Shown here: positions 1-53,913 of the stretch, one piece after another
How positions within the stretch are numbered: position 1 is the stretch's first letter
How the letters are laid out: every line of letters begins with the position of its first letter
Assembly: GCA_051884915.1 (NCBI GenBank)
Contig: JBJEWF010000028.1
Coordinates: 5,515-69,514 of the forward strand
Direction of reading: 5' to 3'
Source: Kiritimatiellia bacterium
GTDB taxonomy: Bacteria; Verrucomicrobiota; Kiritimatiellia; RFP12; UBA1067
DNA: 64,000 bases
Translations under genes and position numbers: made by a program
Notes under the pieces: model-generated
What the model was told of the DNA's origin: nothing
Seen by the model: only the letters and a program-made list of their open reading frames with translations
Databases searched by the model: none

Positions 1-465
1 CGCCCAGGCCGCCAGCTGGTTGTTGCCCATGCGATAAAGGGGCGCCAGACAGGCGGAAACCGCGCGCCCGTAGATCGCATACGGTTCCAGCCAGACGAAA
101 TGGAGGCCCAGGAAGCCGCCGCCCAGGAAGAGCGCCAGAAAGCCGAAGCGCGCGGCCTCCTTCACGGGGGAGGGGGCTGCCGGCCGGAACGGCGCGCGGC
201 ACAGGCGGCGCACGCCGATCAGGATGTCCTGGAAGACGCCCAGCGGGCAGAGGACGGAACAGTAGACCCGGCCGACGGTGAACGTCACTGCCAGAATGGC
301 GACGACCGTCGCCACGGACAGCGCCAGGACGGACGGCCCGAACTGCAGACGGGGCAGCCATCCGAACCAGGCCGCCGCCAGCCCCGTGAAATCGAGAAAG
401 CACGCCGTCAGGGCCAGCAGCGAGAACGCCGCCAGCAGCAGACGCAGAATTCGAAGTTTACGCAC
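1..465 (-). CDS. Polyferredoxin-type 4Fe-4S membrane protein (NapH/YccM-like), N-terminal part; gene runs off the window start
   Basis: Not in the ORF track because it is truncated by the window edge. My minus-strand translation from GTG 463-465 reads VRKLRILRLLLAAFSLLALTACFLDF...GRVYCSVLCPLGVFQD...FLALFLGGGFLGLHFVWLEPYAIYG. It shows TM helices plus the CxxxCP motif of NapH/MauN-type proteins. AGGAGGA lies 6 nt upstream. The start overlaps the upstream stop by 8 nt. Confidence 0.6.
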   Translation of the reverse strand, partial: MRKLRILRLLLAAFSLLALTACFLDFTGLAAAWFGWLPRLQFGPSVLALSVATVVAILAVTFTVGRVYCSVLCPLGVFQDILIGVRRLCRAPFRPAAPSPVKEAARFGFLALFLGGGFLGLHFVWLEPYAIYGRAVSACLAPLYRMGNNQLAAWA

Positions 466-1786
466 GGCCGTTCCTCCTGAGCTTTTCAACAAACGCGTCG
501 ATTTTGCGGATCCAGCCGGAAATCTCGATCGACTGCGGGCAGTGCGGCACGCAACGGCCGCATCCCGTGCAGCGTTCGGCACGGCGCAGCGGCGGAAGCG
601 CCCGTTCGTACGCGACCAGGAACCGGCGCCGGTTGGCGGCGTAGGCGCTATCCCCGGGATCGTCCGGAATCCATCCCTCGGCCTGCGCCGCGTTCCAGAG
701 CGCGAAGATCGCGGGGATGTCGAGCCCGTAGGGACACGGCATGCAGTAGGCACAGGCGGTGCAGGGCACGGAATCATCCGCCAGAAAGGCCTTGGCGGCG
801 CGTTCCAGCGCGGAAAGCTCCGCCGCGTCCAGCGGTTTCAGCGGCGAATAGATCGCGACGTTCTCCTTGAGGTGCTCGATATAGGTCATTCCGCTCAGGA
901 CGGTCAGGACCTTCGGGAACGAACCCGCGAAACGGAACGCCCACCGGGCGGGCGAAGCCGCCGGATCGAGCGGCGTCAACTTGCGCTGGACGGCCAGATT
1001 CGTCCTGGCCAGACGCCCGCCCAGCAGCGGTTCCATCACCACCACGGGAATGCCCTTTTCGGCCAGCAGACCGTAGAGCGTTTCGGCGTTCACGTTGCGC
1101 GCGTTGACTTCCTTCGCGTGCTTCCAGTCGATGTAGTTCATCTGAATCTGGACGAAGTCCCAGTGGACGCGCGCGTGCATCGCCAGCGCGTGGCGGAACA
1201 CCTCCTCGCTGCCGTGGAAGGAAAAGCCCAGGTTGCGAATCCGGCCGGCCGCGCGCTCCGCCAGCAGGAAGTCGAGCATGCCGTTGTCGATGAAGCGCGC
1301 GTTGAACACCTTCATCGCGTTCTTGCCGCCGCCCCCGATCGCATGGAGCAGATAGAAGTCGATCACGTCCGTCCGCAGCAGCCGGCGCGAGGTCTCGTAC
1401 ATTTTTCTGGACGCTTCCGCCGTCTGCGTCTGCGCCGCGAAATTGGAGAGCTTGGTGGCCACCAGCCATTTCCCGCGCGGGTGCTTCGCGAGGGCGTCGC
1501 CCAGCACCTTCTCGGACTCGCCGCGGCAATAGGCCGGCGACGTGTCGAAATAGTTCACGCCGTGTTCGATGCAGTAGTCGATGTGCTTCTGGACGGCCGC
1601 CACGTCGATGGGCGCGGTCGAGCCGCCGCTGAAGGAGTTCGCGTGGCCGCCATCGACCGTCGGATAGCGCATGGCGCCGTAGCCCAGCAAGCCGACCTTT
1701 TCGCCGTGGACGCCCGTCCGGACCGTCATCGCCGCCGAAGCCGGCGGCGGATTCACGAGCGTGGCGAAGAAACTTCGACGATTCAT
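458..1786 (-). CDS. Aldo/keto reductase with C-terminal 2x[4Fe-4S]-type Cys motifs and a Tat-like N-terminus
   Basis: Track ORF 458..2518 trimmed to the ATG at 1786 (MNRRSFFATLVNPPPASAAM...). AKR core: GYGAMRY, YFDTSPAYCRGESEKVLG, DFYLLHA. C-terminal CTACAYCMPCP and CTGCGRCVPHCP. ATGA overlap with the upstream gene at 1783-1786. Confidence 0.85.
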   Translation of the reverse strand: MNRRSFFATLVNPPPASAAMTVRTGVHGEKVGLLGYGAMRYPTVDGGHANSFSGGSTAPIDVAAVQKHIDYCIEHGVNYFDTSPAYCRGESEKVLGDALAKHPRGKWLVATKLSNFAAQTQTAEASRKMYETSRRLLRTDVIDFYLLHAIGGGGKNAMKVFNARFIDNGMLDFLLAERAAGRIRNLGFSFHGSEEVFRHALAMHARVHWDFVQIQMNYIDWKHAKEVNARNVNAETLYGLLAEKGIPVVVMEPLLGGRLARTNLAVQRKLTPLDPAASPARWAFRFAGSFPKVLTVLSGMTYIEHLKENVAIYSPLKPLDAAELSALERAAKAFLADDSVPCTACAYCMPCPYGLDIPAIFALWNAAQAEGWIPDDPGDSAYAANRRRFLVAYERALPPLRRAERCTGCGRCVPHCPQSIEISGWIRKIDAFVEKLRRNGRA

Positions 1787-3363
1787 TTCGCGGTCTCCAC
1801 TTCGGACGCCTCTTCCAGATCGCGTGGCAGATAACCCGGCGCGCAGGCCATCGACACGAAGAACGACGACAAGACGGCGGCGGAACGCATCGGACAGTCG
1901 CCGAAGGCGTGGACCAGCAGCGCCACGTTGCCCATCAGGATCCAGAACGCCCCCGCCGGCAGGCTGTAGAGCGTCCGCGGCTTGGGCGGCGCCTTGTCGG
2001 GCTTCATGAACTGCGCCGCGCGCGACAGTTTGCACCAGTCGCGGCAGAGCGGGAACAGCAGGCAGGCGAAGATGCCGACGAGGCATCCCAGGCCGACGAC
2101 GCCATGCTCGCAGAGGAACTGCATGTAGTCGTTGTGGACGTTCGCGCCGCCGACTTTCTGCAGCTGCTTCAACTCGTCCTTCGTCATGTACGCCATGCAG
2201 AAGTGCCGGTATCCCCAGCCGCCCACGCCGAACAGCGGATGGGCCTTGAAGATCTCCGTCGCCACGCGCGTGTGGTACTGGCCCTTTCCCGACACGCGGT
2301 CCAGCACGTCTAGCGAGGAGATCGTGCCGACCTCCTTCCCCAAATCCTTCGGCGCGAAAACGAACGCGAAAATCAGGAAGACGCCCGCGCCCACCGCCGC
2401 GACGGCAGCCCCCTTGATCCGGCGCGCGCGGTCGTGGCGCGAGAAGACCAGCGACACCTCGTAGTAGAGAAACGCCAGCACGGCCAGCACCGTCACGCAG
2501 ATGATGGCCGCACGGCACAGCGTCGCCAGCACGGCAAAGAAATTCAGGACCGCGGGAACCAGGGCGTAATGGGCGCGGATCCAGCGGATCAGCGTCCCTT
2601 CACGCTGCGACTTCTTGCCTTCGGTCGTCCGGCGCGTCCAGTCGACCACCTCCACCACCCGGTATTGCCAGAGGCCGATCGAGAAGGCGAACATCAGGAC
2701 GAAAAACGCGCCGCCCATGTTCACGTAGCCGAACACGGAGAAGAAGGCGTCGCCGGACTTCGCCGCCTCCCAGAAGACGGACTCCGCGCCGGTTGCCTGC
2801 TGGATGAACCCGAAAACGGCCAGCGCGGCCGAATTCCAGACCATCATCTCCATGAGCATCCGCTTGCCGGCGCGGGACAGGGCATGCCGCACCGCCAGCA
2901 TCGCCGTCAGCGACGGCACGAACCACTGGACGACGCCATAGTGCTCCAGGCGATTCACGCAGAACGGAAAGAACGGCACCGGGGGCCTGGGGTCCGCGCC
3001 GCCGAGGATGGCCGGATAGTCGCACGCCGGGCACAGGCCCGGGTTCACGAACGGAATCAGGATCACCACGAGAAAAGACAGCGTCAGATAGAACAGGGGA
3101 TCGCGCGCCAGCCCCCGCCAGACCCTCCGCCGCGCCGCAAACAGATGCTCGTACTGGCGGCACTGCGGGAAGAACAGCAACGCTTCGAGGAGAAACGCCC
3201 AGAGCCAGGGCATCGTCGCCACGAGCGCCTTCGCCTGGGCGCCTCCGTAGATCCACGAAAAAGCCGCCACCGTCAGGAAAACGAGCAGCACGGGCGCGCA
3301 CCGAATGAGGCCTTCTACCATGTTGTCCCTATCTTTCCGACGGGCCGTGCCGACCCGTGACAT
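1783..3363 (-). CDS. O-antigen ligase / Wzy-like polytopic membrane protein
   Basis: Many TM segments. Motif region GGWGYRHFC...VHNDYMQFLCEHGVVG is typical of the O-antigen ligase family. The start is ambiguous: in-frame ATGs at 3363 (MSRVGTARRK...) and 3321 (MVEGLIRC...). The track start at 3414 lies upstream of the predicted -10 box. Confidence 0.7.
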   Translation of the reverse strand: MSRVGTARRKDRDNMVEGLIRCAPVLLVFLTVAAFSWIYGGAQAKALVATMPWLWAFLLEALLFFPQCRQYEHLFAARRRVWRGLARDPLFYLTLSFLVVILIPFVNPGLCPACDYPAILGGADPRPPVPFFPFCVNRLEHYGVVQWFVPSLTAMLAVRHALSRAGKRMLMEMMVWNSAALAVFGFIQQATGAESVFWEAAKSGDAFFSVFGYVNMGGAFFVLMFAFSIGLWQYRVVEVVDWTRRTTEGKKSQREGTLIRWIRAHYALVPAVLNFFAVLATLCRAAIICVTVLAVLAFLYYEVSLVFSRHDRARRIKGAAVAAVGAGVFLIFAFVFAPKDLGKEVGTISSLDVLDRVSGKGQYHTRVATEIFKAHPLFGVGGWGYRHFCMAYMTKDELKQLQKVGGANVHNDYMQFLCEHGVVGLGCLVGIFACLLFPLCRDWCKLSRAAQFMKPDKAPPKPRTLYSLPAGAFWILMGNVALLVHAFGDCPMRSAAVLSSFFVSMACAPGYLPRDLEEASEVETAK

Positions 3364-3385
3364 TAAACTGCTGTCGCATGGGAGG

Positions 3386-3414
3386 ATTATACCAAAAGAA
3401 CGCCCCGGGGGCAA
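3386..3414 (-). promoter_or_regulatory. Sigma70-like promoter, TTGCCC-N17-TATAAT with TGG extended -10
   Basis: Minus strand reads TTGCCC CCGGGGCGTTCTTTTGG TATAAT. -35 at 3409-3414, -10 at 3386-3391. It lies in the gap after the U32-like gene stop. Confidence 0.4.
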
Positions 3415-3445
3415 ATCCGCCGTCCGCGCGCCGGCGGACGCGCCC

Positions 3446-4465
3446 CTAGACCAGGGACTTGACGATCCGGCGGAACGCCCGTTCGCAGAAGCCGCACCGG
3501 GTGCATTCCCGGGCGCAGCGGGACGTCCGCTCGAACCAGTCGGGCGGAAACGCCGTGTTGTCGAGGAACTGCGGGAAGAACGCGGGCGAGAAGCCCGGCT
3601 CGAAAAGATCCAGCAGATTGCCGTCGAACGAGCCGCGCGCGTAGGCGGAAATCACCATGCCGGGATTCGCGTGCTGGCGCGTGGCCAGCTTGACGACGTC
3701 CACCAGCCCCTCGTAGCGGTGCAGGTCTTCCGGACGAATCCACGTGGCCTTCAGGATCTCGGGGAAATTGACGGGCGACTTGTAGAGCGTCCAGCAGAGA
3801 TGCGGACTCCACCCCTTCACGTTCGTCTGCCGGAGCGCCGCAGACGAATGGGCGACGAGGTTGTCGTGGAACGTCTGCCACGGGCAATTCCGCAAACACC
3901 CCGAATTCGCCAGCAGGCAGAGTTTCTTGCCGCGGCCGTCGCACCAGGCGCGAACCGCCCGCACGGTCTCCAGATGGCGCTGGACGTCGCGGCCCAGGCA
4001 ATAGGAATCGAAGAGCGGCGCCAGATACTCCATCGCCTGGATCGTGGTCAGGCGCATGTTCACCGACGCGCGCACGTCGATGGACGGGAAGGCCCTCTTG
4101 ACCTCCGCCGCGACGAAGGGCGACGCCGTCGTGACGATTTCCGGCAGAAGTCCCGTCTCGTCCAGGCCGCCGAGAATCGCCCGGACGCGCCGCGCGAGCG
4201 CGACGCTCATCGCCTCGGCGCCGTAGCAGTTCGCGTTGAAGAGCAGATCGAGCTTCACGCCCGCGGCGCGCAACCGCCGCAGATCGAAGAGCAGACTGTC
4301 CATCAGCACCTCGGGGTCGTCCTCCTCCTCGTAGCCGAGAACCGGGCGTCCGCTCGGCTCGTCCGGCCACGGGAAGTAGACCTCCCCGACGGCGGGCTGC
4401 GCGAGAACGACGTCCCCGAACGGCGCGCCGTCGGCGAAATGCTGGTAGCCTGCCGCGAACGTCAT
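3446..4465 (-). CDS. Peptidase-U32-like (TIM-barrel, Cys-rich) protein, function unknown
   Basis: 339-aa ORF with ordinary composition. CLLANSGCLRNC resembles the U32 signature around ALCxxxSGxC (C-x6-C), with further Cys downstream. ATG at 4465 lies 1 nt after the upstream stop. Confidence 0.5.
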   Translation of the reverse strand: MTFAAGYQHFADGAPFGDVVLAQPAVGEVYFPWPDEPSGRPVLGYEEEDDPEVLMDSLLFDLRRLRAAGVKLDLLFNANCYGAEAMSVALARRVRAILGGLDETGLLPEIVTTASPFVAAEVKRAFPSIDVRASVNMRLTTIQAMEYLAPLFDSYCLGRDVQRHLETVRAVRAWCDGRGKKLCLLANSGCLRNCPWQTFHDNLVAHSSAALRQTNVKGWSPHLCWTLYKSPVNFPEILKATWIRPEDLHRYEGLVDVVKLATRQHANPGMVISAYARGSFDGNLLDLFEPGFSPAFFPQFLDNTAFPPDWFERTSRCARECTRCGFCERAFRRIVKSLV

Positions 4466-4466
4466 G

Positions 4467-5471
4467 CTAGATCCACGCCTCCTTCTTCTCCATCACGTCC
4501 GGGTCCTCCATCCGGCCCGCGTACTTCGCCGCCGTCTCGGCGTCGATCTCGTACGGTTTGGAGTGGTCGATTTCCCATTGCCGGCGGCCGGGCTGGCGGA
4601 ACGGATTGCGGAACGTGCAGAGCAGCTTCTTGCGCTGTTCGAGATGGACCATGCAGGCGCGCATGCACCCGCAGGCGCCTTCGATGGCGCGGCCGTAGCC
4701 GTATTGGCGCGGATAGTCCCGCTCAAACGGATTGAGTTCGCGCTTCTTGCCGCCGAAAAGGCCCTCTTCGCAGGCCATCTCGTCGAGTTTGCCCCATTCC
4801 TGGACGTGCCCGGCCAGCGTCACCCGGACGCTCTCCGTCATCGACAGCGCCCGGCCGTGGCAGTTTTTCACGCAGAGCTTGCAGCGGTCGCAGATGTGAC
4901 CCTCGAAAATCGGGTCCGGTTCCAGCGGCGCGTCCGTGAACATCACGGCGAAGCGCTGGCGCGGCCCGAACTGCGGGGTCAGAAACACCTTCGACCAGCC
5001 GAACTCGCCGAGACCGGCGAGATAGGCGGCGATGCGGAAATGGACGAACACGTCCGGATACGGCTTGCCCGGCGCGACGGGCCGGCTCCACCCCTTGCGG
5101 AACATGCCCGTCACGGGATTGATCGATTCGCCGCCGTTGCCGTTGAATTGCGGAATGGCCTCGTATCCATGGTCCTCCATCCAGCGCACGAGACGCCACA
5201 GGCACATCGTGCCCTGGACCTGGTTGAGCGACGCATAGCCCATCGACGGGTAGTCGATGAACCGCGTGCCCTCCTCGATTCCGCGCAGCGTGCCGCGCGG
5301 AATGCGGAACGCCAGCACCACCATGGCGCGGGCGCGCGGGAAGATGTAGCGCGGGTCGCACTGCTTCGGCGCGTTCTCCCAGCGGTCCATCGAGGAGATG
5401 CCCACGAGATCGGCGCCCAGTTCCTTCGCCTTGGCCTTGACGTCCGCGGCGGTCAGTTCTTCCAGCATCAT
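4467..5471 (-). CDS. Reductive-dehalogenase/QueG-superfamily-like Fe-S protein, copy 1
   Basis: N-terminus ADVKAKAKELGADLVGIS is typical of QueG/RdhA-like proteins. CDRCKLCVKNC (CxxCxxCxxxC) plus CGCMRAC. GGAGGGGAGGAAA precedes ATGATG at 5471. No signal peptide seen. Confidence 0.7.
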   Translation of the reverse strand: MMLEELTAADVKAKAKELGADLVGISSMDRWENAPKQCDPRYIFPRARAMVVLAFRIPRGTLRGIEEGTRFIDYPSMGYASLNQVQGTMCLWRLVRWMEDHGYEAIPQFNGNGGESINPVTGMFRKGWSRPVAPGKPYPDVFVHFRIAAYLAGLGEFGWSKVFLTPQFGPRQRFAVMFTDAPLEPDPIFEGHICDRCKLCVKNCHGRALSMTESVRVTLAGHVQEWGKLDEMACEEGLFGGKKRELNPFERDYPRQYGYGRAIEGACGCMRACMVHLEQRKKLLCTFRNPFRQPGRRQWEIDHSKPYEIDAETAAKYAGRMEDPDVMEKKEAWI

Positions 5472-5494
5472 GCTCGGTTTCCTCCCCTCCGCGG

Positions 5495-6622
5495 TCAGTC
5501 GATCAGCGGATTGTAGCCCGCCTCCTCCGGCCGGTCCCGCCCGGGGATGGCGCCCTCGGGCGGCTGCACGCCGTAGGCCTCCGTCAGGCCGGCCGCGCGG
5601 GCGCTACCGTAGTTGGACTTCTTGTTGTAGTTCGTGTAGGCGTCGTGGTCTTCGATCTTGCCCGGGAACGCCTCGGCCACCCACGGTTCGAGTTCCGGCT
5701 TCTTCGTGCGGTCGATCGTCCACTGCTTCCAGTCCGGACTGCGGAACGGCTCGCGGAATTCGCGCGCCAGCCTCTTCTTCGCCTCCAGATGGACCATGCA
5801 GGCGCGCACGCAGCCGCAGCTGCCTTCCGTCGCGCGGCCGTAGCCGAACGTGCGCGGATAGTCGCCGTCGAACGGATTGAGCTCTTCGCCGAGTCCGCCG
5901 TAGCGGAAGCTCCGCGCGCAGGCGACCTCGTCGTGCCGGCCCCACGTCTGCACATGGCCCGCCAGCGTGAACGACTCCGCTTCCGTCGGATGGATCGCGC
6001 CGCCATGGCAGTGCTTCACGCACTCCATGCAGCGGTCGCAGATGCGGCCCTCGAAAATCGGGTCCGGCTCAAGTTCGGCGTCCGTGAGCATGATGGCGAA
6101 GCGCTGGCGCGGGCCGAACTCCGGCGTGAGGAACACGCGCGACCAGCCGAATTCGCCGAGACCGGCGAGATAGGCCGCCACGCGGAAATCCGGCGAGACG
6201 TCCGGGTACGGCTTGCCGGGCGCCACCGGCCGGCTCCAGCCCTTGCGGAAGTTGCCCGTGACGGGGTTCACGGCGTCGCCGCCGTTGACGTTCGCCATCG
6301 GCACCGCCTCGTAGCCGTGGTCTTCCATGAACTGCGACATGCCCCAGAGGACCATCGGACCGTAGATCTGGTTGAGCGCCGCATAGCCCATCGACTGGTA
6401 GTTGAGGAAGTGCGTGCCCTCCTCCACGCCGCGCAGCGAACCGCGCGGAATGCGGAACGCGAAGACGATCATCGACTTCGCGCCGGGGAAGATGTAGCGC
6501 GGGTCTTTCTGCCTGTCCACGCCTTCCCAGCGGCTCATGGGCGCAATGCCCACCAGGTCCGCACCGAGTTCTTTCGCCTTGGCCTTGACGTCGGCCGCGG
6601 TCAGATCGCCTAGATATGCCAT
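5495..6622 (-). CDS. Reductive-dehalogenase/QueG-superfamily-like Fe-S protein, copy 2 (tandem paralogue)
   Basis: Track ORF 5495..6940 trimmed to the ATG at 6622 (MAYLGDLTAADVKAKAKELGADLVGIA...). Same Cys motifs as copy 1 (CDRCMECVKHC, CGCVRAC). About 45 extra C-terminal residues. AAAGGAA precedes the start. Confidence 0.7.
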   Translation of the reverse strand: MAYLGDLTAADVKAKAKELGADLVGIAPMSRWEGVDRQKDPRYIFPGAKSMIVFAFRIPRGSLRGVEEGTHFLNYQSMGYAALNQIYGPMVLWGMSQFMEDHGYEAVPMANVNGGDAVNPVTGNFRKGWSRPVAPGKPYPDVSPDFRVAAYLAGLGEFGWSRVFLTPEFGPRQRFAIMLTDAELEPDPIFEGRICDRCMECVKHCHGGAIHPTEAESFTLAGHVQTWGRHDEVACARSFRYGGLGEELNPFDGDYPRTFGYGRATEGSCGCVRACMVHLEAKKRLAREFREPFRSPDWKQWTIDRTKKPELEPWVAEAFPGKIEDHDAYTNYNKKSNYGSARAAGLTEAYGVQPPEGAIPGRDRPEEAGYNPLID

Positions 6623-6687
6623 GCCAGATTCCTTTGTCGTTTGCGAGTGGAGGTTGAAATGGAAATGCGCGCTCCGGAACGGGACGG

Positions 6688-8415
6688 TCAGTACCGTCTG
6701 AGGGCGAACACCAGAAGAACGCCCGAGCCGGCGGCGACGGCCGCCAGGACGAGACTGCGCAATCCGTCGCCGCGGATGCAGCTGCCCACGCTGAACATGA
6801 GCGCGTACACGCCGAGCGAGGCCAGCGCCATCGCGACCAGCCCCCAGCCGACGTCGCGCCCGCGCGCGCGGACCGCCTGGCGGAACGCCCGGACGACGGC
6901 CGCGTCCGTCGGCCGCGTCGCCAGCGTCACGCCCACCCACGCGGCCGTCGTCACGGCCATGCCGATCAGCAGCACGTGCCAGCTCTTCAGCGCCGGCCCG
7001 CCGAACAGCGGATAGACGAGGTTCAGGAACAGCGCCACCAGGAAGCTGACCGCCATCGCCGTGATTTCGCTCCAGGCGTTAATGCGCATCCAGAACCAGC
7101 GCAGGAGGAAGAGGAGGCCGGTTCCGGCGCCCACCTGCAGCACGAGGTTGAACGCCTTTCCCGCGCTCTGCAGACACGGCGCCAGCAGCGAGGAGGCGAG
7201 CATCAGAACGACGACCGAAACGCGGCCGACGCAAATCAGTTCCCGCTCGGAGGCCGCCGGACGCAGGAAGCGCTTCCAGAAATCGTTCGCCACGTAGCTC
7301 GCGCCCATCGTGAGATGGGCCGCGACCGTCGAAAACAGCGCGCCCATCATGGCCGCCACCGTCACGCCGTACCAGCCGTTTCGCGGCACGAAGGTCAACA
7401 TGGCCGGATAGGCCATGTCGCCCTTGACGAGCGCCGGGTCGACCTGGGGGAACGCCTTCTGGAGCGAGGCCAGGTCGGGGAAGACGATCAGCGAGGCGAA
7501 GGCCACCAGATACCAGGGCCAGGGGCGCAGCGCGTAGTTCACCACGTTGTAGAGCACGCTGCCCGCCACGCAATGGTTCTCGCTCCGGGCCGAGAGCATG
7601 CGCTGGACGATGTAGCCGCCGCCGCCCGGCTCGCTGCCGGGATACCACACGTTCCACCACTGGACGGCCACGGGAATCGCGAAGACGCTGATGAAGAGGT
7701 CCGCATTGTCGGGCGACGGGAAGAAGTCGAGCTTCGCCCTGACCGCCGGATGCGCCATCAGCGCCGCGAAGCCGCCCACTTCCGGCAGCGCGAGCGCGTA
7801 GTGAAGCGCCACGAAGGCGCCGACCATCACGATCGCGAAGAGGAAGAAGTCCGTGTAGACGGCGCCGCGCAGGCCGCCGATGGCGGAATAGACGATCGAC
7901 GCCGCCGCCGTGACGAGCAGGATGACCCAGGGTTCGAGCCCCAGCATCGTCTGCCCGATCTTGATGGCGCCCAGGAGCACCAGCCCCGTGGAGATCGTGT
8001 TGAAGACCACCCCGAGGTAGATGGACCGGAACCCGCGCAGAAACGCCGCCGCCCGGCCGCCGTAGCGCAGTTCGTAGAACTCGACGTCCGTCTTCGCGCC
8101 GCTGCGCACCCACAGCCGCGCGTAGACGAAGACGGTCATCAGCCCCGTCAGCAGGAACGCCCACCATTTCCAGTTCGCCGCCAGGCCGTCCTCGCGGATG
8201 AACTGCGTGAACATGTTCGCGCTGTTCGTGGACGTGGTCGCCGCGCTCATCGAAATGCCGATGAGCCACCAGGGCATGGATCGCCCCGACAGGAAGAAGT
8301 CCCTGGCGTCGGCCCCCGCCCGCCGCGAACACCGCAACGCGATGCCCACGACGATCCCGAAGAACGCGATGACGGCCACCCAGTCCAGGCGGCCAAACGT
8401 GGCCGAGAAGTTCAT
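6688..8415 (-). CDS. Sodium:solute symporter (SSS) family transporter
   Basis: About 13 TM segments. FFLSGRSMPWW and GGLRGAVYTDF are typical of the SSS family. The track start at 8421 is a GTG. I prefer the ATG at 8415 (MNFSATF...), which lies 6 nt after a TGCTAGAAT box. Confidence 0.85.
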   Translation of the reverse strand: MNFSATFGRLDWVAVIAFFGIVVGIALRCSRRAGADARDFFLSGRSMPWWLIGISMSAATTSTNSANMFTQFIREDGLAANWKWWAFLLTGLMTVFVYARLWVRSGAKTDVEFYELRYGGRAAAFLRGFRSIYLGVVFNTISTGLVLLGAIKIGQTMLGLEPWVILLVTAAASIVYSAIGGLRGAVYTDFFLFAIVMVGAFVALHYALALPEVGGFAALMAHPAVRAKLDFFPSPDNADLFISVFAIPVAVQWWNVWYPGSEPGGGGYIVQRMLSARSENHCVAGSVLYNVVNYALRPWPWYLVAFASLIVFPDLASLQKAFPQVDPALVKGDMAYPAMLTFVPRNGWYGVTVAAMMGALFSTVAAHLTMGASYVANDFWKRFLRPAASERELICVGRVSVVVLMLASSLLAPCLQSAGKAFNLVLQVGAGTGLLFLLRWFWMRINAWSEITAMAVSFLVALFLNLVYPLFGGPALKSWHVLLIGMAVTTAAWVGVTLATRPTDAAVVRAFRQAVRARGRDVGWGLVAMALASLGVYALMFSVGSCIRGDGLRSLVLAAVAAGSGVLLVFALRRY

Positions 8416-8421
8416 GGGCAC

Positions 8422-8450
8422 ATTCTAGCAAAAGCGGGCCGGCGCGTCAC
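8422..8450 (-). promoter_or_regulatory. Sigma70-like promoter GTGACG-N17-TAGAAT with TGC extended -10; only 6 nt to the ATG
   Basis: Minus strand reads GTGACG CGCCGGCCCGCTTTTGC TAGAAT GTGCCC ATG. The -35 overlaps the stop of the upstream gene. Confidence 0.4.
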
Positions 8451-10288
8451 TGCGGACGGAACGGCGGACCGTTCGGGTTGACAAGGAGGTAGGACAGCGG
8501 CTTGACGGTCTCGCCGTGGTAGTCGTAGGCGTCCGCGCCGTAGTTCGAGACGATCTTCGAGCCGTCGCCGAACGACGTCAGGAAGACCTGGTCGGCCAGC
8601 GCGTCGTGGCGCACCATCTGCTCCCTCTGGAGGTGGCGGACCGGCACGAACTCGTCCCACGCCCGCCTGATGCGCGGCACGTCGGCGAACTTGCAGGTGT
8701 AGAAGATCGGGCGGCCGCCGAATTCGACGATCTTGAGCGCCACGCGCGGATCTTCGACGCCATCGCCTTCCATCCACCGCGGATCGCCGCTCTTCTCCAG
8801 CTTGTACAGGCATTTGCCGCGCGTGTGGTTCTGGCACCAGCGATCGGACGTGTAGAGGATGATGCCGTGGTAGACGAGCTCCCACACCGGGAAGACGCCC
8901 GTCGCCAGCGGCGGCAGTTTCCCCTCGGCCAGCTCCTTGAGATCGCGCTCGACATAGTTGATGTAGTCGAGATTGCCGGCCACGTGGTCGTAGCCGCTTT
9001 CGCTCGCCGCGCCGCCCATCAGGCGCCGCCCCTCGGCCAGGATCCGGTTCTGGAATTCGGCCATCTGCTCCGGCGTGCAGGGATGCTTCGGGTCGCCGCA
9101 GCGCTGGGGATAGGTCGCGGAATAGACGTCGATGTAGTGCGGGCCGCGAATGCCGAGCGCCGCCATCTCCTTCATCTCCTGCGGCAGCCAGCGTTCCCAC
9201 GCGCATTTCTGGCACACCCAGTAGCACTGGCCGCCGGCCCAGAGGCCGCCCATGTCCAGCGCGCCGTCCGCCCGCTTGCAGACCCAATCCGCGTCCCACC
9301 GGCGCGAACACAGGTAGCCGTCCGTATTGGAGGCGTGGAGCGCGAACTGGTAGCCCAGCGCCTTCGCCTTTCCGATCAGCCGCCGGAACGCCGCCGCGCC
9401 GCCGGCCTCGGCGCCGACGGGGAAATGGCCGGGGACGCGCCCGTCGTAGCCGCCGTCCTGCCAGCCGGCCGAGCAGATGGACAGTTTGTCCACGCCCGCG
9501 TCCTTCAGCGCCTGGAGAAACTCCTCCGTCACGCCAAAGGGCATGTGGACGACCACGGGCGGCTCTTCGCCCTGCCGGAAGAAGAGCTTGGGGTCCTTGG
9601 CGTCGGGAATCGGCTTCGCGGCATGCGTCTGAATGCGCACGACGATCGCGTCGCACAGATAGTCGAGTTCCGGACTGTCCTTGACGCGGTCCTTGATCGT
9701 GCGCACCGCGCCGCGCGCCAGCTGGTACCGGCGATAGGCGTGCGCCAGGCCGTTGTAGTCGGCCGCCGCGCCCGTCAGCGGATGGTACTCCACGACGATG
9801 TCGTTGTAGAATCCGGGGAAGAACGCCTTGACCCGGTCGCACCGGAACCGCGGGAAGACCTCGTAGGCGCCCTTCTTCGCCGCGGCGGTGAAGTCGTAGT
9901 CGAACCGCCACGTCTTCACGTGTCCGTACCAGAGCCGGTCGCCCCGCTTCAGGCCGAAAATCGGCATCAGCTGCCGGCTTTTCGCGTAGACGCCGTCGTC
10001 CTTGTCCAGGCGGCCGTAGGTCCCGCGCGCCTGGATCCAATAGCCGTCGTCGCCCTTGCGGGCCTTCATGAACGCCGGCACGACGTCCACGGCCCAGGCG
10101 TCGGCCGGGATCTCGCCTTTGGGGAACGTCGCGCGCCAGCCGTTCGCGGGCAGCGGCTCCAGTTCGATCGTCCGGACGTCGCACGCCACGGTCTTTTTCG
10201 CGGTACCCCGGAAAATGCGGACCTCCGCCGTCTCCGAAAAGAGCGCGGCGGAGGACAACAGGCAGACGCCAAGAAGAAGGCTTCTCAT
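8447..10288 (-). CDS. Exported glycoside-hydrolase-like protein (resembles DUF5696-type proteins), paralogue 1
   Basis: Track ORF 8447..11278 trimmed to the ATG at 10288 (MRSLLLGVCLLSSAALFS, a signal peptide). Shares GW.DGG.DGR.P..FPV....GG, YIDVYS and LVYHGII blocks with the ORF at 51989..53785. The start overlaps the argG stop (TGATG). Confidence 0.7.
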   Translation of the reverse strand: MRSLLLGVCLLSSAALFSETAEVRIFRGTAKKTVACDVRTIELEPLPANGWRATFPKGEIPADAWAVDVVPAFMKARKGDDGYWIQARGTYGRLDKDDGVYAKSRQLMPIFGLKRGDRLWYGHVKTWRFDYDFTAAAKKGAYEVFPRFRCDRVKAFFPGFYNDIVVEYHPLTGAAADYNGLAHAYRRYQLARGAVRTIKDRVKDSPELDYLCDAIVVRIQTHAAKPIPDAKDPKLFFRQGEEPPVVVHMPFGVTEEFLQALKDAGVDKLSICSAGWQDGGYDGRVPGHFPVGAEAGGAAAFRRLIGKAKALGYQFALHASNTDGYLCSRRWDADWVCKRADGALDMGGLWAGGQCYWVCQKCAWERWLPQEMKEMAALGIRGPHYIDVYSATYPQRCGDPKHPCTPEQMAEFQNRILAEGRRLMGGAASESGYDHVAGNLDYINYVERDLKELAEGKLPPLATGVFPVWELVYHGIILYTSDRWCQNHTRGKCLYKLEKSGDPRWMEGDGVEDPRVALKIVEFGGRPIFYTCKFADVPRIRRAWDEFVPVRHLQREQMVRHDALADQVFLTSFGDGSKIVSNYGADAYDYHGETVKPLSYLLVNPNGPPFRPQ

Positions 10289-11523
10289 CACTTCACGCTG
10301 ATCTGGCCGGACTTCGCGAGCATCTTCGCCTCGACGGACTGGATTTCCGCGAATCCCTGCGAACTGTGCGGATTCAGGCCGTTGGAGGCTTCCATCGAAC
10401 TGTCGGCCTCGTTGTAGATCGTCGCCTTGAGGCCGGTGAGCGCCTCGAAGAAGATGTTGCCCTTGTAGAGGCCCAGCGTGACGTCCGCCGTCGCCTTGTC
10501 CGCCCACACCTGGATGGCCGCGCGGGCCGCCCGGGTGGCGGGGTCGAACCAGCGGCCATCGTAGATCTGGTCGCTCACGAGCTTGGAGAGCTGCTGGAAG
10601 AGGAGCGTCGAGCGACGGTCCATGATGCCCTCGTAGATGTACTTGAGACCCCAGCTGAGCACCTCCATGCCGGGCGCCTCGTAGACGCCGCGGCTCTTCG
10701 TTCCGATGATGCGGTTTTCGAGCGCGTGCTTCATGCCGATGCCGTTGCGGCCGCCGATCTTGTTCAGTTCGAGCATGATGTCGAACGGCGACAGCTTCCT
10801 GCCGTTGACGGCCGTGCAGCGGCCCTTCGCGAACGAGAGCGTCACCTTCTCGACCTTGTTCGGCGCCTTTTCCGGCCACACGCCCATCGTGGGCTTCACG
10901 ATGCGCATTGAGGTCTCCATCGATTCGAGATCCTCCGCCTCGTGGGAAAGCCCGGCGAGGTTCGCGTCCGTCGAATATTTCTTCTTCGTGCCGACGAACG
11001 CCGTGATGCCGCGCGCGGCGAGGAACGCGACCATCTCCGTGCGGCCCGGGAAGCGCTTCAGCAGTTCGCTGTCGCGCCACGGGGCGTACACGCCGAACTT
11101 CGGGTCGAGCACGTTCGTGTAGCGCTCGAAGCGCATCTGGTCGTTGCCGCGGCCCGTCGCGCCGTGGACGAGCACCGTGCAGCCGGCCTTCTTCATCGCG
11201 GGAAGCAGCGCCTGGACCGTCACCGCGCGGGCGATGCCCGTCGAGTTCCAGTAGCCGCCGTCGTACATGGCCTGGCACTTGACCGTCTCGAAGCAGATGT
11301 CGGCCATCGCCTTCGTCACGTCGACGATCGTCGTCTCGACGCCCGTGGGCGCCATCTTCTTCTTGATGTCGTTGATGTCCTTTTCGTCGGGCTGGCCGAC
11401 GTTCGCGCTGAACGCCTTCACCTTGACGCCCGCGTCAAGCAGCACGCAGCAGATCGTTTTCGAATCGAGACCGCCCGACACGCACACGCCGACGGTCTTG
11501 CCCTTCAGGTCTTCCAATTTCAT
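10288..11523 (-). CDS. argG: Argininosuccinate synthase
   Basis: GVCVSGGLDS (the N-type ATP pyrophosphatase motif), HGATGRGNDQMRFE, and full-length similarity to long-form ArgG. Confidence 0.95.
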   Translation of the reverse strand: MKLEDLKGKTVGVCVSGGLDSKTICCVLLDAGVKVKAFSANVGQPDEKDINDIKKKMAPTGVETTIVDVTKAMADICFETVKCQAMYDGGYWNSTGIARAVTVQALLPAMKKAGCTVLVHGATGRGNDQMRFERYTNVLDPKFGVYAPWRDSELLKRFPGRTEMVAFLAARGITAFVGTKKKYSTDANLAGLSHEAEDLESMETSMRIVKPTMGVWPEKAPNKVEKVTLSFAKGRCTAVNGRKLSPFDIMLELNKIGGRNGIGMKHALENRIIGTKSRGVYEAPGMEVLSWGLKYIYEGIMDRRSTLLFQQLSKLVSDQIYDGRWFDPATRAARAAIQVWADKATADVTLGLYKGNIFFEALTGLKATIYNEADSSMEASNGLNPHSSQGFAEIQSVEAKMLAKSGQISVK

Positions 11524-50863: not shown

Positions 50864-51967
50864 TCAGATCCGTTCCAGCCGATAGGCGCGCGTGCCGAGT
50901 TTCATGCGCGCGCCTTCGGCGACGGCATCCTGCCAGCGGGTGGCGGGATGCATCGTGGTGAACAGATCGCCCTTCGTGTCCCTGCCGGCCAGACAGCAGT
51001 TCGGCAGAAGGGGCGCGGCATTGCAGAGGTCGGCGCACGCCTGGTCGATGGCGACCGGATCGAACGACGCCGCGATGCCGATGTCGCCGATCAGCGGAAC
51101 GTCGTTCATGGGATGGCAGTCGCAGTGCGGCGAGACGTCGCAGATGAACGACACGTGGAACGAGGGCTTGCCGCGGACGACGGCGGCCGCATACTCGGCG
51201 ATCTTGCCGTGCATGACCGTGCAGGGCTCGCCGAAATCGCTCTGGATGGCGTCGCGGTTGCAGGCGCCGATGCAGCGCCCGCATCCCACGCATCTGCCGG
51301 GGTCGATGGCGGCCTTGCGGTTCTTGACCGTGCAGGCGCCGTGCGCGCATTCGCGCGTGCACGCGCCGCAGCCGATGCAGAGTTCCGCGTTGACCTGGGG
51401 ATGGACGGACGAGTGCATGGCCTTCTTGCCCGCGCGGGACCCGCCGCCCATGCCGAGGTTCTTGAGCGCCCCGCCGATTCCCGTCATTTCATGGCACTTG
51501 ACGTGGGTGAGCGAGATCACGGCGTCGGCGTCCACCAGCGCGCGGCCGATGTAGGCCTCCTTCACGTACTTGCCGTCCGGCACCGGCACGGCCACGTCGT
51601 CCGTTCCCTTCAGGCCATCCGCAATCAGAATGTGGCAGCCCGTCTGGAACGGCGAAAACCCGTTTTCATACGCCGCCGCCAGATGGTCGAGCGCGTTCTT
51701 CCGCCGCCCCACGTAGAGCGTGTTGGCGTCGGTCAGGAACGGGAGACCGCCGCGGGACCTGACGAAATCGACCAGCGTCTTCGCCCAGTTCGGCCGCAGA
51801 TAGGCCAGACACCCCGGTTCGCCGAAGTGCGTTTTGACGGCCACGTACTTGTCCGCCAGATCCAGGTCGCCCAGTCCCGCCGTTTTCAGCAGGCGCGTGA
51901 ACTTCTGCTGGAGATTCTCGGCGTCCGAACAGCGGAAGTCGGCGAAGTAGACAGTCGATTTTTCCAT
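50864..51967 (-). CDS. DUF362-type protein with inserted 2x[4Fe-4S] ferredoxin domain
   Basis: MEKSTVYFADFR...VAVKTHFGE is a DUF362-like N-terminus. CIGCGACTREC and CVGCGRCIGAC motifs. Confidence 0.75.
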   Translation of the reverse strand: MEKSTVYFADFRCSDAENLQQKFTRLLKTAGLGDLDLADKYVAVKTHFGEPGCLAYLRPNWAKTLVDFVRSRGGLPFLTDANTLYVGRRKNALDHLAAAYENGFSPFQTGCHILIADGLKGTDDVAVPVPDGKYVKEAYIGRALVDADAVISLTHVKCHEMTGIGGALKNLGMGGGSRAGKKAMHSSVHPQVNAELCIGCGACTRECAHGACTVKNRKAAIDPGRCVGCGRCIGACNRDAIQSDFGEPCTVMHGKIAEYAAAVVRGKPSFHVSFICDVSPHCDCHPMNDVPLIGDIGIAASFDPVAIDQACADLCNAAPLLPNCCLAGRDTKGDLFTTMHPATRWQDAVAEGARMKLGTRAYRLERI

Positions 51968-51988
51968 CTCGGCGTTCCTGTCGGGTGT

Positions 51989-53785
51989 TCAGTCCCGCAC
52001 GAGCCAGTCCTCGGCGGAGACGGTGACGCCGTCGACGGCGACGGGCGTCCGGTTGTAGTTGACGTAGATCCGCGTCCGGTTCGAGTAGGTCGTCCGGAAG
52101 ACGCCCGGAGCCAGCTCGTCATGCCCGTCCATGTAGACGTACTGCAGCTTCCACACCTTCTGGTAGGCGTCCACGCCGCGCTTGACGTGGGCGACGGACC
52201 GGACGAGCTGTTCGTCGGTCCCGCATTCCAGATCGACGTCGCCCATCCAGTTCGCGCCCTTGCCCGGCGTGAGGAAGTTCGCGTAGAAATAGAAACTCGG
52301 CCGCCCTCCGAACTCGATCGTCTTCAGTTCGCTCGGCCGCCCCTTGATCTGGGCGTTGACCGTCGTCGTGTAGGGGTTGGAGAGGATGATGCCGTTGTAG
52401 ACGAGCTGGAACATCGGCACCAGACGGTCGACCAGACCGGCGTACGTGGACTCCTCGAACGGCCGCGCGAACGAGACGTAGAGCACGTAGTCGAGCTGGC
52501 CCGCGTTCTGGTCGAAGGACCCTTCGCTCGAAATGCCGCCAAACGTGTCGCGCCCCAGCTGCAGGATGTGGCTGACATACGCGGCGCTCTCGCGCTCGTT
52601 CAACGGGTGGCGCGGATCCGGACAGGCCTCCGCGCCCACGCAGCTGTAGACGTCCAGATAGTGGAGGCCCCTGAAACCCAGCGCCCGGACCATCGGCATC
52701 TGCTGGAGGGCGAAGCGCTCGTAGGCGCGCTTGGGGCAGATCGTGTACATGCGGCCGCCGCCCCAGGTCGTCTTGCCGCGCCGAAGCGTTCCGTCGGCGT
52801 TCTTCTCGCGGATGTATTCGGCATCCCAGGCGTCGGCGATCAGATAGGCGTCGCGGTGGTTGCAGTGCGCCACCACCTGATAGCCCAGATCCTGCGCGTG
52901 GCGGATGGCCGCCTTCAGCTTGTCCTCGCCGCCCAGCGCCGGCTCCACGGGAAAGATCTGCGGCCAGCGGCCGTCATGCCCGCCCACGTTCCAGCCCACA
53001 AGGCAGAACTCGGCGCCGCCGATGCCCTGGCGCTTGAATTCGTCCGCGATCTGCCGGAACCGGTCGAACGTGACGACCGGCTTCACGGGCGGCTCGTTCT
53101 TGACCGTCTGCTCGGGTTCCGGACTCGGAACGGGCTTCCACGCATGGCGCACGCGGATCTCCGGCCATTGCGCGGCATACTCCAGCAGCGGCTGCGCCTT
53201 GATCCGTTCGGCCAGCGGCACGACCGCCTTGCGCGCCAGCTGGTACGCCCGGTAGGCGCGCGCCATGCCCGCATACGTGGCGTCCGCTTCCGCCAGCCGG
53301 ATGAAATCGACGGCGGGATCCTCGTAGACGTTGCCGTCCATGTTGAAATCCCAGGCCATCGAAAGCACGTATTCGCCCTTCTTCAATTCGGCCGTGACGG
53401 AAAAGTTGTAGGGCATCCCCTTCACGATGGCCACCCAGGACTCCTGCGGCGTCTTGAGCCCGAAAAACGCCATCTGCGAACGCCCGATGCGGCGCACGCC
53501 GTCCTTCGCCCGCGGCCGGAACGTGCCCAGCTCGCCATTGCCGTTGACCCAATAGCCGTCCGTGCCGGCCGGGATGGGCGAACCCGGACAGACGATCCGG
53601 ATCGACTTGACGCGCGCCGGAAGCGCACGCCGGTCCATCCGGAACGACCGGCGGCCGTCCGCCTCGCGCAAGGCAACCGCCCGGGACGTCCCGGCGCCGT
53701 CCACCGTTGCGATGTCGACCATCACCTCGGCCGCAGCGCCTGTCCAGCATACGGCCGCCATCAACACGTTCGCCCAGATTCTCAT
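51989..53785 (-). CDS. Exported glycoside-hydrolase-like protein (resembles DUF5696-type proteins), paralogue 2
   Basis: Trimmed to the ATG at 53785 (MRIWANVLMAAVCWTGAAAEV, a signal peptide). Shares blocks with 8447..10288: GWNVGGHDGRWPQIFPV, YLDVYS and LVYNGII. Confidence 0.7.
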   Translation of the reverse strand: MRIWANVLMAAVCWTGAAAEVMVDIATVDGAGTSRAVALREADGRRSFRMDRRALPARVKSIRIVCPGSPIPAGTDGYWVNGNGELGTFRPRAKDGVRRIGRSQMAFFGLKTPQESWVAIVKGMPYNFSVTAELKKGEYVLSMAWDFNMDGNVYEDPAVDFIRLAEADATYAGMARAYRAYQLARKAVVPLAERIKAQPLLEYAAQWPEIRVRHAWKPVPSPEPEQTVKNEPPVKPVVTFDRFRQIADEFKRQGIGGAEFCLVGWNVGGHDGRWPQIFPVEPALGGEDKLKAAIRHAQDLGYQVVAHCNHRDAYLIADAWDAEYIREKNADGTLRRGKTTWGGGRMYTICPKRAYERFALQQMPMVRALGFRGLHYLDVYSCVGAEACPDPRHPLNERESAAYVSHILQLGRDTFGGISSEGSFDQNAGQLDYVLYVSFARPFEESTYAGLVDRLVPMFQLVYNGIILSNPYTTTVNAQIKGRPSELKTIEFGGRPSFYFYANFLTPGKGANWMGDVDLECGTDEQLVRSVAHVKRGVDAYQKVWKLQYVYMDGHDELAPGVFRTTYSNRTRIYVNYNRTPVAVDGVTVSAEDWLVRD

Positions 53786-53791
53786 GGACCC

Positions 53792-53800
53792 ATTATAGCA
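53792..53800 (-). promoter_or_regulatory. Extended -10 box TGCTATAAT, 6 nt upstream of the ATG at 53785
   Basis: Minus strand reads TTTTTTTGC TATAAT GGGTCC ATG. The T-tract belongs to the preceding terminator. Confidence 0.4.
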
Positions 53801-53829
53801 AAAAAAGACTCGACGCGTCCGCATCGAGT
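53800..53829 (-). terminator. Rho-independent terminator after the tRNA pair
   Basis: Minus-strand RNA forms ACUCGAUGC-GGAC-GCGUCGAGU, a 9-bp stem with one G-U and a 4-nt loop, then C and U7. It starts 7 nt after the tRNA-Met 3' end. Confidence 0.7.
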
Positions 53830-53836
53830 TTGAAAT

Positions 53837-53913
<77 letters not shown>

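Follow-up and report, generated by a model that had tools for sequence, protein, structure and literature searches.

Four adjoining genes of a Kiritimatiellia bacterium (GenBank assembly GCA_051884915.1, contig JBJEWF010000028.1) encode a sodium/solute symporter (SSS), two reductive dehalogenase-like (RDH-like) iron–sulfur (Fe–S) proteins and a U32-like protein. They occupy positions 3446-8415 of the 64,000-nucleotide (nt) stretch of DNA analysed here, termed the window, and are likely to form a conserved catabolic cassette for a glycan-derived sugar, equipped with a two-component metalloenzyme system that would work without O2. The cassette probably performs an uncharacterised oxygen-free step of sugar breakdown; this is proposed because it recurs beside sugar-degrading genes of anaerobes in at least six phyla and no description of it was found. 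Public records label its proteins hypothetical, and our literature search found no paper on the RDH-like/U32-like cassette or pair. Here, we describe how the paralogous RDH-like proteins and their C-terminal tails diverge, the retention of putative GH129 catalytic residues in an exported neighbour, the SGLT type of the transporter, a promoter-like site inside the gene block, and accessory genes in other genomes that are linked to sulfur.

Conservation across genomes

Contigs from one genome per species were scanned for RDH-like genes, giving 459 loci, of which 79 were kept (61%-95% identity). The hosts belong to Kiritimatiellota, Lentisphaerota, Bacteroidota, Bacillota, Planctomycetota and Spirochaetota, and carriers that can be named include the cultured Oligosphaera ethanolica and a metagenome-assembled genome of Victivallis vadensis (Lentisphaerota), as well as Alistipes and Prolixibacteraceae (Bacteroidota). 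Strain DSM 24202 of O. ethanolica has the RDH-U32 pair (locus L046), and V. vadensis may have it as well, the contig in the genome assigned to that species breaking off at the RDH-like gene (locus L065). Neighbours within 3 kb were counted in the 43 well-flanked loci, which have at least 3 kb on each side. A U32-like gene is present in 24 of these, an SSS gene in 25, a gene of the DUF5696 family in 10 and at least one of the three in 37, while the RDH-like gene is a tandem pair in 14; orthologues of the window transporter, at 50-88% identity, adjoin RDH-like genes in 25/43. The reverse count used 52 metagenome loci in which sufficient DNA precedes the U32-like gene: 39 have an RDH-like gene in the locus and 28 have one immediately before the U32-like gene, including pairs that have diverged to 41-53% identity. 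Without correction for phylogeny, the identities of adjacent RDH-like and U32-like proteins are also correlated (rho 0.83, n = 60). The co-occurrence of RDH-like, U32-like and SSS genes in other genomes, which the first-pass annotation of the window had put forward as a check on its own reading, is borne out by these counts.

Lineages share the gene content but arrange it differently: gut Kiritimatiellia have SSS-RDH-RDH-U32, other Kiritimatiellia SSS-RDH-DUF5696-U32, Bacteroidales RDH-U32-SSS within a SusC/SusD locus, and loci of Firmicutes type ABC transporter-RDH-U32. Because the set recurs in order across phyla, it is not a chance association. The conserved unit is the SSS gene, one or two RDH-like genes and the U32-like gene, and the link to DUF5696 is looser. 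Of the five-gene block originally described in the window, the four-gene SSS-RDH-RDH-U32 unit therefore stands, but the DUF5696 gene is optional and depends on the lineage. In the nearest relatives, the place of the DUF5696 and arg genes upstream of the transporter is taken by a divergent gene for an AraC/sugar-binding regulator (locus L009; L numbers designate loci of other genomes) or by a GH97 gene (L007).

Distant paralogous modules (25-41% identity) with two or three RDH-like genes were also seen, at L034 2435-6144, L057 2239-5199 and L074/L075 ~3060-5240; those in L034 and L057 also have a U32-like gene and share a contig with a high-identity cassette. No fusion of RDH-like and U32-like proteins was found among the long family members. 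In L059 an open reading frame (ORF) of 84 amino acids (aa) after the RDH-like gene (11031-11285) clusters with the U32-like family and may be a truncated or degraded gene.

Sugar-related genes around the cassette

The surroundings of the cassette suggest sugar catabolism. In 19 loci there is a divergent AraC regulator whose sugar domain is of the periplasmic-binding type, and other loci have IclR regulators. The Bacteroidales cassette sits within a SusC/SusD polysaccharide utilization locus with GH43 (a glycoside hydrolase (GH) family), and in the Firmicutes-type loci the cassette follows ABC sugar transporters. Clostridial loci have the order DUF4432 (mutarotase-like), RDH, U32, Amidohydro_2, AraA-like isomerase, FGGY kinase and SIS isomerase, and in one Alistipes locus rhaA and rhaB adjoin AraC-RDH-U32. 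Recurrent neighbours elsewhere encode a cytoplasmic CBM9_2-like protein, an exported lipoprotein of ~670 aa with weak GH42 likeness, Abhydrolase_7/AXE1 esterases, Gfo/Idh/MocA and short-chain dehydrogenase/reductase-type oxidoreductases, FGGY kinases, and enzymes of GH28, GH39, GH43, GH78 and GH97. These regulators, transporters and catabolic genes support the proposal, made when the window was first annotated, that an imported sugar derivative is processed anaerobically. Together they point to an aldose in free form, probably of the galacto or deoxy type, that needs modification before it can enter an isomerase-kinase-aldolase route.

Glycyl-radical enzymes adjoin the RDH-U32 pair in three lineages (L014 6857-9692 and L013; L171 12340-15414; L052 3393-5231). 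They are accompanied by activases in L013/L014 and L171, and none matched a named glycyl-radical equivalog. They were rejected as core members of the cassette, with a mutual identity of only ~26%.

The RDH-like proteins

By predicted fold, both RDH-like proteins are members of the RdhA/QueG superfamily, in which the corrinoid-binding core is assigned to them on fold similarity only. The AlphaFold2 model of copy 2, with a mean predicted local distance difference test (pLDDT) of 69, returned RdhA or QueG structures as all of its top 46 Foldseek matches (E 8e-8 to 3e-5), the next match having E = 1. Copy 2 also matches PceA (8q4h, E 9e-9) and QueG (5d08, E 6e-4) by sequence, and a profile of 22 RDH-like sequences matches PceA at E 5e-14, with collinear alignment of the N-terminal GADLVGI, of a helix in the middle and of the stretch AGLG...TPEFGPR...TD..PD..CxxCxxCxxxC. 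At the level of families the picture is different. The two copies score 44.6 and 44.9 bits against TIGR02486 (RdhA, cut-off 160.35), over residues 148-225 only, and 20.1 and 23.8 bits against TIGR00276 (QueG, cut-off 200). The earlier description of both as reductive dehalogenase/QueG relatives thus survives for the superfamily, but not for either family. Matches to QueG stop near residue 210 with nothing beyond, and the QueG-type C-terminal tRNA-binding domain is therefore absent.

As first reported, TAADVKAKAKELGADLVGI is the N-terminal sequence shared by the two proteins, both of which contain CxxCxxCxxxC and lack a twin-arginine translocation (Tat) leader; the N-termini, MAYLGDLTAADVK and MMLEELTAADVK, lead straight into the conserved domain, and the block contains no small membrane-protein gene that could encode an RdhB-like anchor. 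Seven Cys are invariant in the family, C194, C197, C200 and C204 in the first motif and C234, C269 and C273 at the second site. The C-x-C-x3-C that had been described as the second cluster motif occurs in both window proteins, but its first Cys is not conserved in the family, where invariance is limited to C-x3-C and one Cys upstream of it. On their fold, the RDH-like proteins may bind cobalamin.

The two copies in the window are 66% identical. In a tree of 104 RDH-like proteins the copies trace back to a single duplication basal to the gut Kiritimatiellia clade, and the two resulting sister clades mirror each other in topology, with 24 members each. At the NQ[IV]Y site, Tyr is kept in 24/24 first copies, and is replaced by His or Gln in 22/24 second copies. 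A weak hidden Markov model alignment (4.9 bits, with a 2-residue indel), useful as a lead only, puts this Tyr at PceA chain position 246, the catalytic Tyr of that enzyme. Most single-copy RDH-like proteins end in a variable low-complexity linker followed by a conserved N-P-L-I-D-like tail; in tandem pairs the tail is kept by exactly one copy in 18/21 and by both in none. Because the Tyr/His-Gln split and the single tail both distinguish the copies, the sequences suggest that the tandem pair forms a heteromer in which one subunit is catalytic and the other modified. The tail of copy 1, encoded at 5495-5560 of the window, may be a docking peptide.

The U32-like protein

The U32-like window protein has no sequence match in Pfam, NCBIfam or the Protein Data Bank (PDB), and PF01136 (Peptidase_U32) is not found even at E <= 1. 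Its relatives connect it to the superfamily: PF01136 is matched by 18/39 diverse ones (best E 6.5e-14), and the family profile matches structure 5d88 at E 4.5e-6. The AlphaFold2 model (pLDDT 93.8) also has 5d88 as its top Foldseek match (E 6e-9, template modelling (TM) score 0.69 on the target; next match 9e-5). On the model and these matches, the protein is placed in the U32 superfamily with a predicted TIM-barrel fold. The family is large: a word-indexed search gave more than 4000 proteins, and there are 1372 representatives when members are clustered at 50%.

Eight Cys are conserved, of which C80, C190, C194 and C224 lie in the barrel and C317-x3-C321-x2-C324-x2-C327 at the C-terminus. Characterised U32 enzymes bind [4Fe-4S] through CX6CX15CX3/4C, or CXnCX12CX3C in UbiV (PMC6747719). 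The barrel of the window protein has the same number of Cys with a different spacing (C...C-x3-C-x29-C). The U32-like call in the first-pass annotation accordingly holds for the superfamily, through the 18/39 relatives and the 5d88 fold, but not for the canonical U32 Cys motif. The protein may have hydroxylase activity.

Putative proteins of sugar uptake and release

The transporter, described initially as an SSS protein, scores 111.7 bits against PF00474 (gathering score 22.8) and is SGLT-like. Its nearest solved relatives are the Vibrio Na+/galactose symporter vSGLT (2xq2, E 6e-33) and human SGLT1/2, not proline or sialate carriers.

The exported protein encoded upstream of the transporter had been described as having a signal peptide and glycoside-hydrolase-like blocks, and the present analysis agrees with both. 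Its N-terminus, MRSLLLGVCLLSSAALFSE, is signal-peptide-like by eye. The protein matches PF18952 (DUF5696) at E 6.5e-29 (101.3 bits, gathering score 25.6) and GH101 weakly. Among solved structures, phmmer aligns residues 166-503 with the GH129 enzyme NagBb (5wzn/5wzq, E 1.5e-21, ~80 bits), with far weaker matches to GH101 and a GH129-like 3,6-anhydro-D-galactosidase. The catalytic pair of NagBb, at chain positions 435 and 478, is matched in the alignment by D387 and E430, so that both putative GH129 catalytic residues are kept and the protein is probably an active exported retaining alpha-glycosidase.

A second DUF5696 paralogue, 31% identical to the first, is encoded in the window at 51989-53863 (minus strand). 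It is preceded by a gene for a DUF4838/GH67N-like protein (54181-56511) and directly followed by one for a DUF362 protein with two 4Fe-4S motifs (50864-51967, minus strand), so that a DUF5696 gene adjoining a gene for an uncharacterised cytoplasmic Fe–S protein is seen again at 50864-53863.

Organization of the locus in the window

The five ORFs on the minus strand were re-read from the window (table 1). They run head to tail, and the gaps first given between them, 25, 65, 23 and 1 nt, follow from the confirmed coordinates. Upstream (5′) of the block lie argG, argD (class III aminotransferase) and argB, and the overlap of the argG stop with the start of the DUF5696 gene, TGATG at 10286-10290, was likewise found again. 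The G+C content of the window is ~66%, and ORFs in G+C-rich loci were called with a codon-position composition filter.

Operon structure was judged from sequence patterns. We read the arrangement as two predicted transcription units, argB-argD-argG-DUF5696 and SSS-RDH-RDH-U32. Since a promoter-like site with a TG-extended -10-like element sits between the DUF5696 gene and the transporter, read-through from the arg genes, which had been raised as a possibility for the block, is not needed for the core. The G+C-rich hairpins after the U32-like gene are a probable end of the second unit, as judged by pattern; terminator-like sites are no more frequent than in shuffles.

Directly 3′ of the cassette, the minus strand at 458-3414 encodes a Wzy_C-type membrane protein and then a protein that joins an aldo/keto-reductase to a 2x[4Fe-4S] ferredoxin domain. 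The Wzy_C-type gene has its own promoter-like site (3414-3386), and this arrangement was not seen after the cassette in the nearest relatives.

Table 1. Positions of the cassette genes, putative signals and linked cysteate synthase genes.
Feature	Sequence	Position	Strand	Basis or remarks
DUF5696 protein, 613 aa, GH129-like putative retaining alpha-glycosidase	window	8447..10288	-	PF18952, NagBb similarity
Promoter-like site	window	8422..8450	-	GTGACG-N17-TAGAAT, TG extension, ends 6 nt before transporter ATG; consensus match only
Na+/solute symporter, SGLT sugar type, 575 aa	window	6688..8415	-	PF00474 E 5e-32
RDH-like copy 1, 375 aa, RdhA/QueG-superfamily Fe–S protein by predicted fold	window	5495..6622	-	Tyr at NQ[IV]Y site, ...YNPLID tail
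RDH-like copy 2, 334 aa, paralogue	window	4467..5471	-	Gln at Tyr site, no tail
U32-superfamily TIM-barrel protein (predicted), 339 aa	window	3446..4465	-	relatives' PF01136 matches, profile, AlphaFold2 model
G+C-rich hairpins	window	3401..3440	-	after U32-like stop; probable transcription-unit end; pattern match only
Cysteate synthase gene	L123	593-1897		TIGR03844, same operon as SSS-RDH-U32
Cysteate synthase gene	L051	2131-3438		TIGR03844, same operon as SSS-RDH-U32
Cysteate synthase gene	L057	6619-7905		TIGR03844, same operon as SSS-RDH-U32
Cysteate synthase gene	L063	3818-5107		TIGR03844, same operon as SSS-RDH-U32

Proposed function and alternatives

The proposed pathway can be divided into three stages: release, uptake and modification of the sugar. 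Exported glycosidases, in the window the GH129-like DUF5696 enzyme, would free a monosaccharide outside the cell, and the SGLT-type Na+ symporter would take it up. In the cytoplasm, the two-component metalloenzyme system would alter the sugar without O2 so that it can enter ordinary isomerase, kinase and aldolase steps. The RDH-like pair, of the class III corrinoid/[4Fe-4S] superfamily, would probably act as a heteromer that cleaves a carbon-heteroatom bond by two-electron reduction. The U32-like TIM barrel, with two predicted Fe–S sites, would be its obligate partner, providing either the oxidative or activating half-reaction or an electron conduit. The families and folds, the gene order kept across phyla, the sugar type of the transporter and regulators, and the paralogue pattern are observed; corrinoid binding, complex formation, the type of reaction and the substrate are the parts of this scheme that we infer.

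Several observations weigh against the cassette as a sugar-catabolic unit of this kind. The genomes are dense in glycosidases, with two DUF5696 genes in the 64-kb window alone, and chance would place some GH genes next to the cassette. The accessory genes of the relatives (regulator, isomerase or kinase) are all missing from the window. No RNA run matched this stretch, and DNA runs contain only 6-8% of the sampled words. The RDH-like model is of medium confidence only (pLDDT 69, TM ~0.43), and just seven invariant Cys are shared between two clusters, which affects the second Fe–S site. The association of the genes is also incomplete: a U32-like gene is not nearby in ~44% of the well-flanked RDH-like loci, U32-like genes occur far from RDH-like genes in L001 (among housekeeping genes) and L008 (after GH123), and in L005/L038, on contig JAPXSY010000011.1, SSS-RDH-RDH lies ~22 kb from the U32-like gene. 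The U32-like gene on that contig adjoins the housekeeping genes rsmD, coaD, rpmF, plsX and fab.

Genes linked to sulfur in other loci raise the possibility, which we regard as unlikely, that the RDH-like/U32-like pair cleaves C-S (or S-O) bonds and thereby frees sulfite from imported sulfoquinovose or sulfated hexose without O2. In a Prolixibacteraceae-like lineage the operon includes a cysteate synthase gene, whose product scores 480 bits with the TIGR03844 equivalog (cut-off 325) and which in L123 lies directly before SSS-RDH-U32 with gaps of 39, 62, 18 and -8 nt. A PF03601/YeiH-family membrane protein is encoded at L116 6683-7666, with a 1-nt overlap with the SSS gene, in an RDH-U32-SSS-YeiH-CBM9_2 operon, and a second PF03601 protein near the cassette at L071 77-1660; the family is publicly annotated as putative sulfate exporter. 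Cysteate synthase uses sulfite, and such neighbours would make sense if the pair frees it. A screen of the small multi-pass membrane proteins of the loci found only these two PF03601 proteins and no TauE-type exporter. In L059 (Victivallales) the RDH-like gene follows genes for an isomerase, for which the sulfoquinovose isomerase SftI is the sole NCBIfam match at 122 bits, as well as for a class II aldolase and an FGGY kinase, and precedes those for an AXE1 esterase and a DUF5696 protein. L079 encodes a sulfolactate-dehydrogenase-like Ldh_2 protein, and many Arg are invariant in the RDH-like family. The sulfolytic sulfoquinovose routes listed in a 2026 review all depend on O2, and none is anaerobic (PMC13436972), which would leave room for such a reaction. 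However, the cysteate synthase link is confined to one lineage and so amounts to a single evolutionary event, YeiH is present in two loci, and the SftI and sulfolactate dehydrogenase scores fall below their cut-offs (122 of 700 and 251 of 500). Neither a sulfoquinovosidase of GH31 or GH188 nor a sulfite reductase was seen, the GH28, GH39, GH43, GH78 and GH97 neighbours indicate pectin and hemicellulose instead, and within the window there are no sulfur-linked accessory genes. Sulfite-releasing chemistry is, to our knowledge, foreign to both the RdhA/QueG and U32 superfamilies, which also counts against sulfur as the target.

Pectin-type neighbours (GH28, GH78, GH43, GH39 and rhaA/rhaB), together with the galacto-type transporter and GH relatives, would suit demethylation of O-methyl sugars (2-O-methyl-fucose or -xylose, 4-O-methyl-glucuronate or 6-O-methyl-galactose), a role that we consider quite improbable. 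The methyl group would be transferred to Co(I) or else hydroxylated, independently of O2, by the U32-like protein, and the pair would match the P450 sugar demethylases in an anaerobic form. In favour of the idea, anaerobic cleavage of methyl ethers usually relies on cob(I)alamin. The only sugar demethylation that our literature search turned up depends on P450 and O2 (PMC6292453). No locus, however, has a methyltransferase, corrinoid-protein or folate-linked gene, nothing in the data is specific to methyl sugars, and the cysteate synthase and YeiH genes would go unexplained. We also know of no methyl transfer by RdhA/QueG enzymes, a further point against it. That the U32-like protein is a housekeeping RNA or quinone hydroxylase, adjoining the RDH-like genes through inherited gene order, is very improbable: its strong conservation (~70% identity over more than 100 clusters, more than 4000 relatives) and its occasional place among housekeeping genes with no RDH-like gene nearby (L001, L008) would fit, but the pairing (28/52 directly upstream, 39/52 in the locus) extends over several phyla, includes the pairs at 41-53% identity and survives shuffling of the surrounding gene order. 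The two genes are moreover 1-20 nt apart or overlap, and the Cys pattern is unlike that of characterised U32 hydroxylases (PMC6747719). Least probable of all is that the RDH-like proteins are ordinary QueG or catabolic organohalide reductive dehalogenases that adjoin sugar genes by accident. Some relatives do carry the Joint Genome Institute label 'epoxyqueuosine reductase', and there is local similarity to RdhA/QueG around the first Fe–S motif, but scores of 20-24 bits against 200 (TIGR00276) and 44-45 against 160 (TIGR02486), the lack of a tRNA-binding domain, a Tat signal and an RdhB-like anchor gene, and the consistent linkage to sugar transporters, regulators and the U32-like gene across phyla all argue otherwise.

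Significance

We know of only two reactions for RdhA/QueG-type enzymes, dehalogenation and epoxyqueuosine reduction, and U32 Fe–S enzymes are known to us for RNA and quinone hydroxylation only. The cassette is a widespread, unstudied variant of these kinds of metalloenzyme, whose proteins fall outside RdhA, QueG and the canonical U32 enzymes as those are defined. It joins one RdhA/QueG branch, possibly the third of a small enzyme class, to one U32 branch in 459 species-level genomes of at least six phyla, in anaerobes of herbivore and human guts, digesters and sediments. Solving it would supply an oxygen-free reaction of carbohydrate breakdown that is absent from current pathway maps and a function for thousands of 'hypothetical proteins'. 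Should sulfite release after all prove correct, RdhA/QueG-type enzymes would gain a third reaction class, and the O2-dependent sulfoquinovose monooxygenase and dioxygenase routes their missing anaerobic counterpart. One anaerobe could then use the whole carbon skeleton of a sulfo-sugar, the source of sulfoquinovose being plant and algal sulfolipid, and sulfite as the product would bear on anoxic sulfo-sugar mineralisation and gut hydrogen sulfide production.

Comparison with known systems

The exported protein of the window resembles NagBb, the GH129 alpha-N-acetylgalactosaminidase (PDB 5wzn), whose catalytic domain is significantly similar and with which D387/E430 align. It differs in belonging to another Pfam family (DUF5696), with ~80 bits of similarity, which is present in multiple copies in this genome. 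The U32-like protein shares a predicted TIM barrel and four barrel Cys with UbiU/UbiV, TrhP, RlhA and Mk0906 (5d88) (PMC6747719). Unlike these U32 oxidases, it has an extra C-terminal CX3CX2CX2C motif, and its partner is an RdhA/QueG-like protein, neither a second U32 protein nor UbiT.

The RDH-like proteins have the same predicted fold as RdhA, represented by PceA (4uqu, 8q4h) and the catabolic NpRdhA (4ras, 6zxu), which are among their top Foldseek matches (E 8e-8 to 3e-5), and GADLVGI, AGLGxxG...TPxxGPR...TD...PD and the first CxxCxxCxxxC are collinear in both. In contrast to RdhA, they are small (334-375 aa against ~460-700 aa) and have no Tat leader, RdhB or NpRdhA-type reductase module; their second cluster motif is degenerate and ~30 residues are inserted before the AGLG motif. 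They are encoded in sugar operons, where sugar transporters or regulators always accompany them and the U32-like partner usually does. QueG (PDB 5d08, 5d6s) is similar in size and, like them, cytoplasmic without a Tat signal, and shares the superfamily fold (Foldseek E 2e-6), whereas the RDH-like genes are in tandem beside a sugar importer instead of queuosine genes, and their products have no match to the tRNA-binding region. The reduction of a C-O bond on a sugar-like carbocycle by QueG is nonetheless the nearest chemical precedent for the RDH-like proteins.

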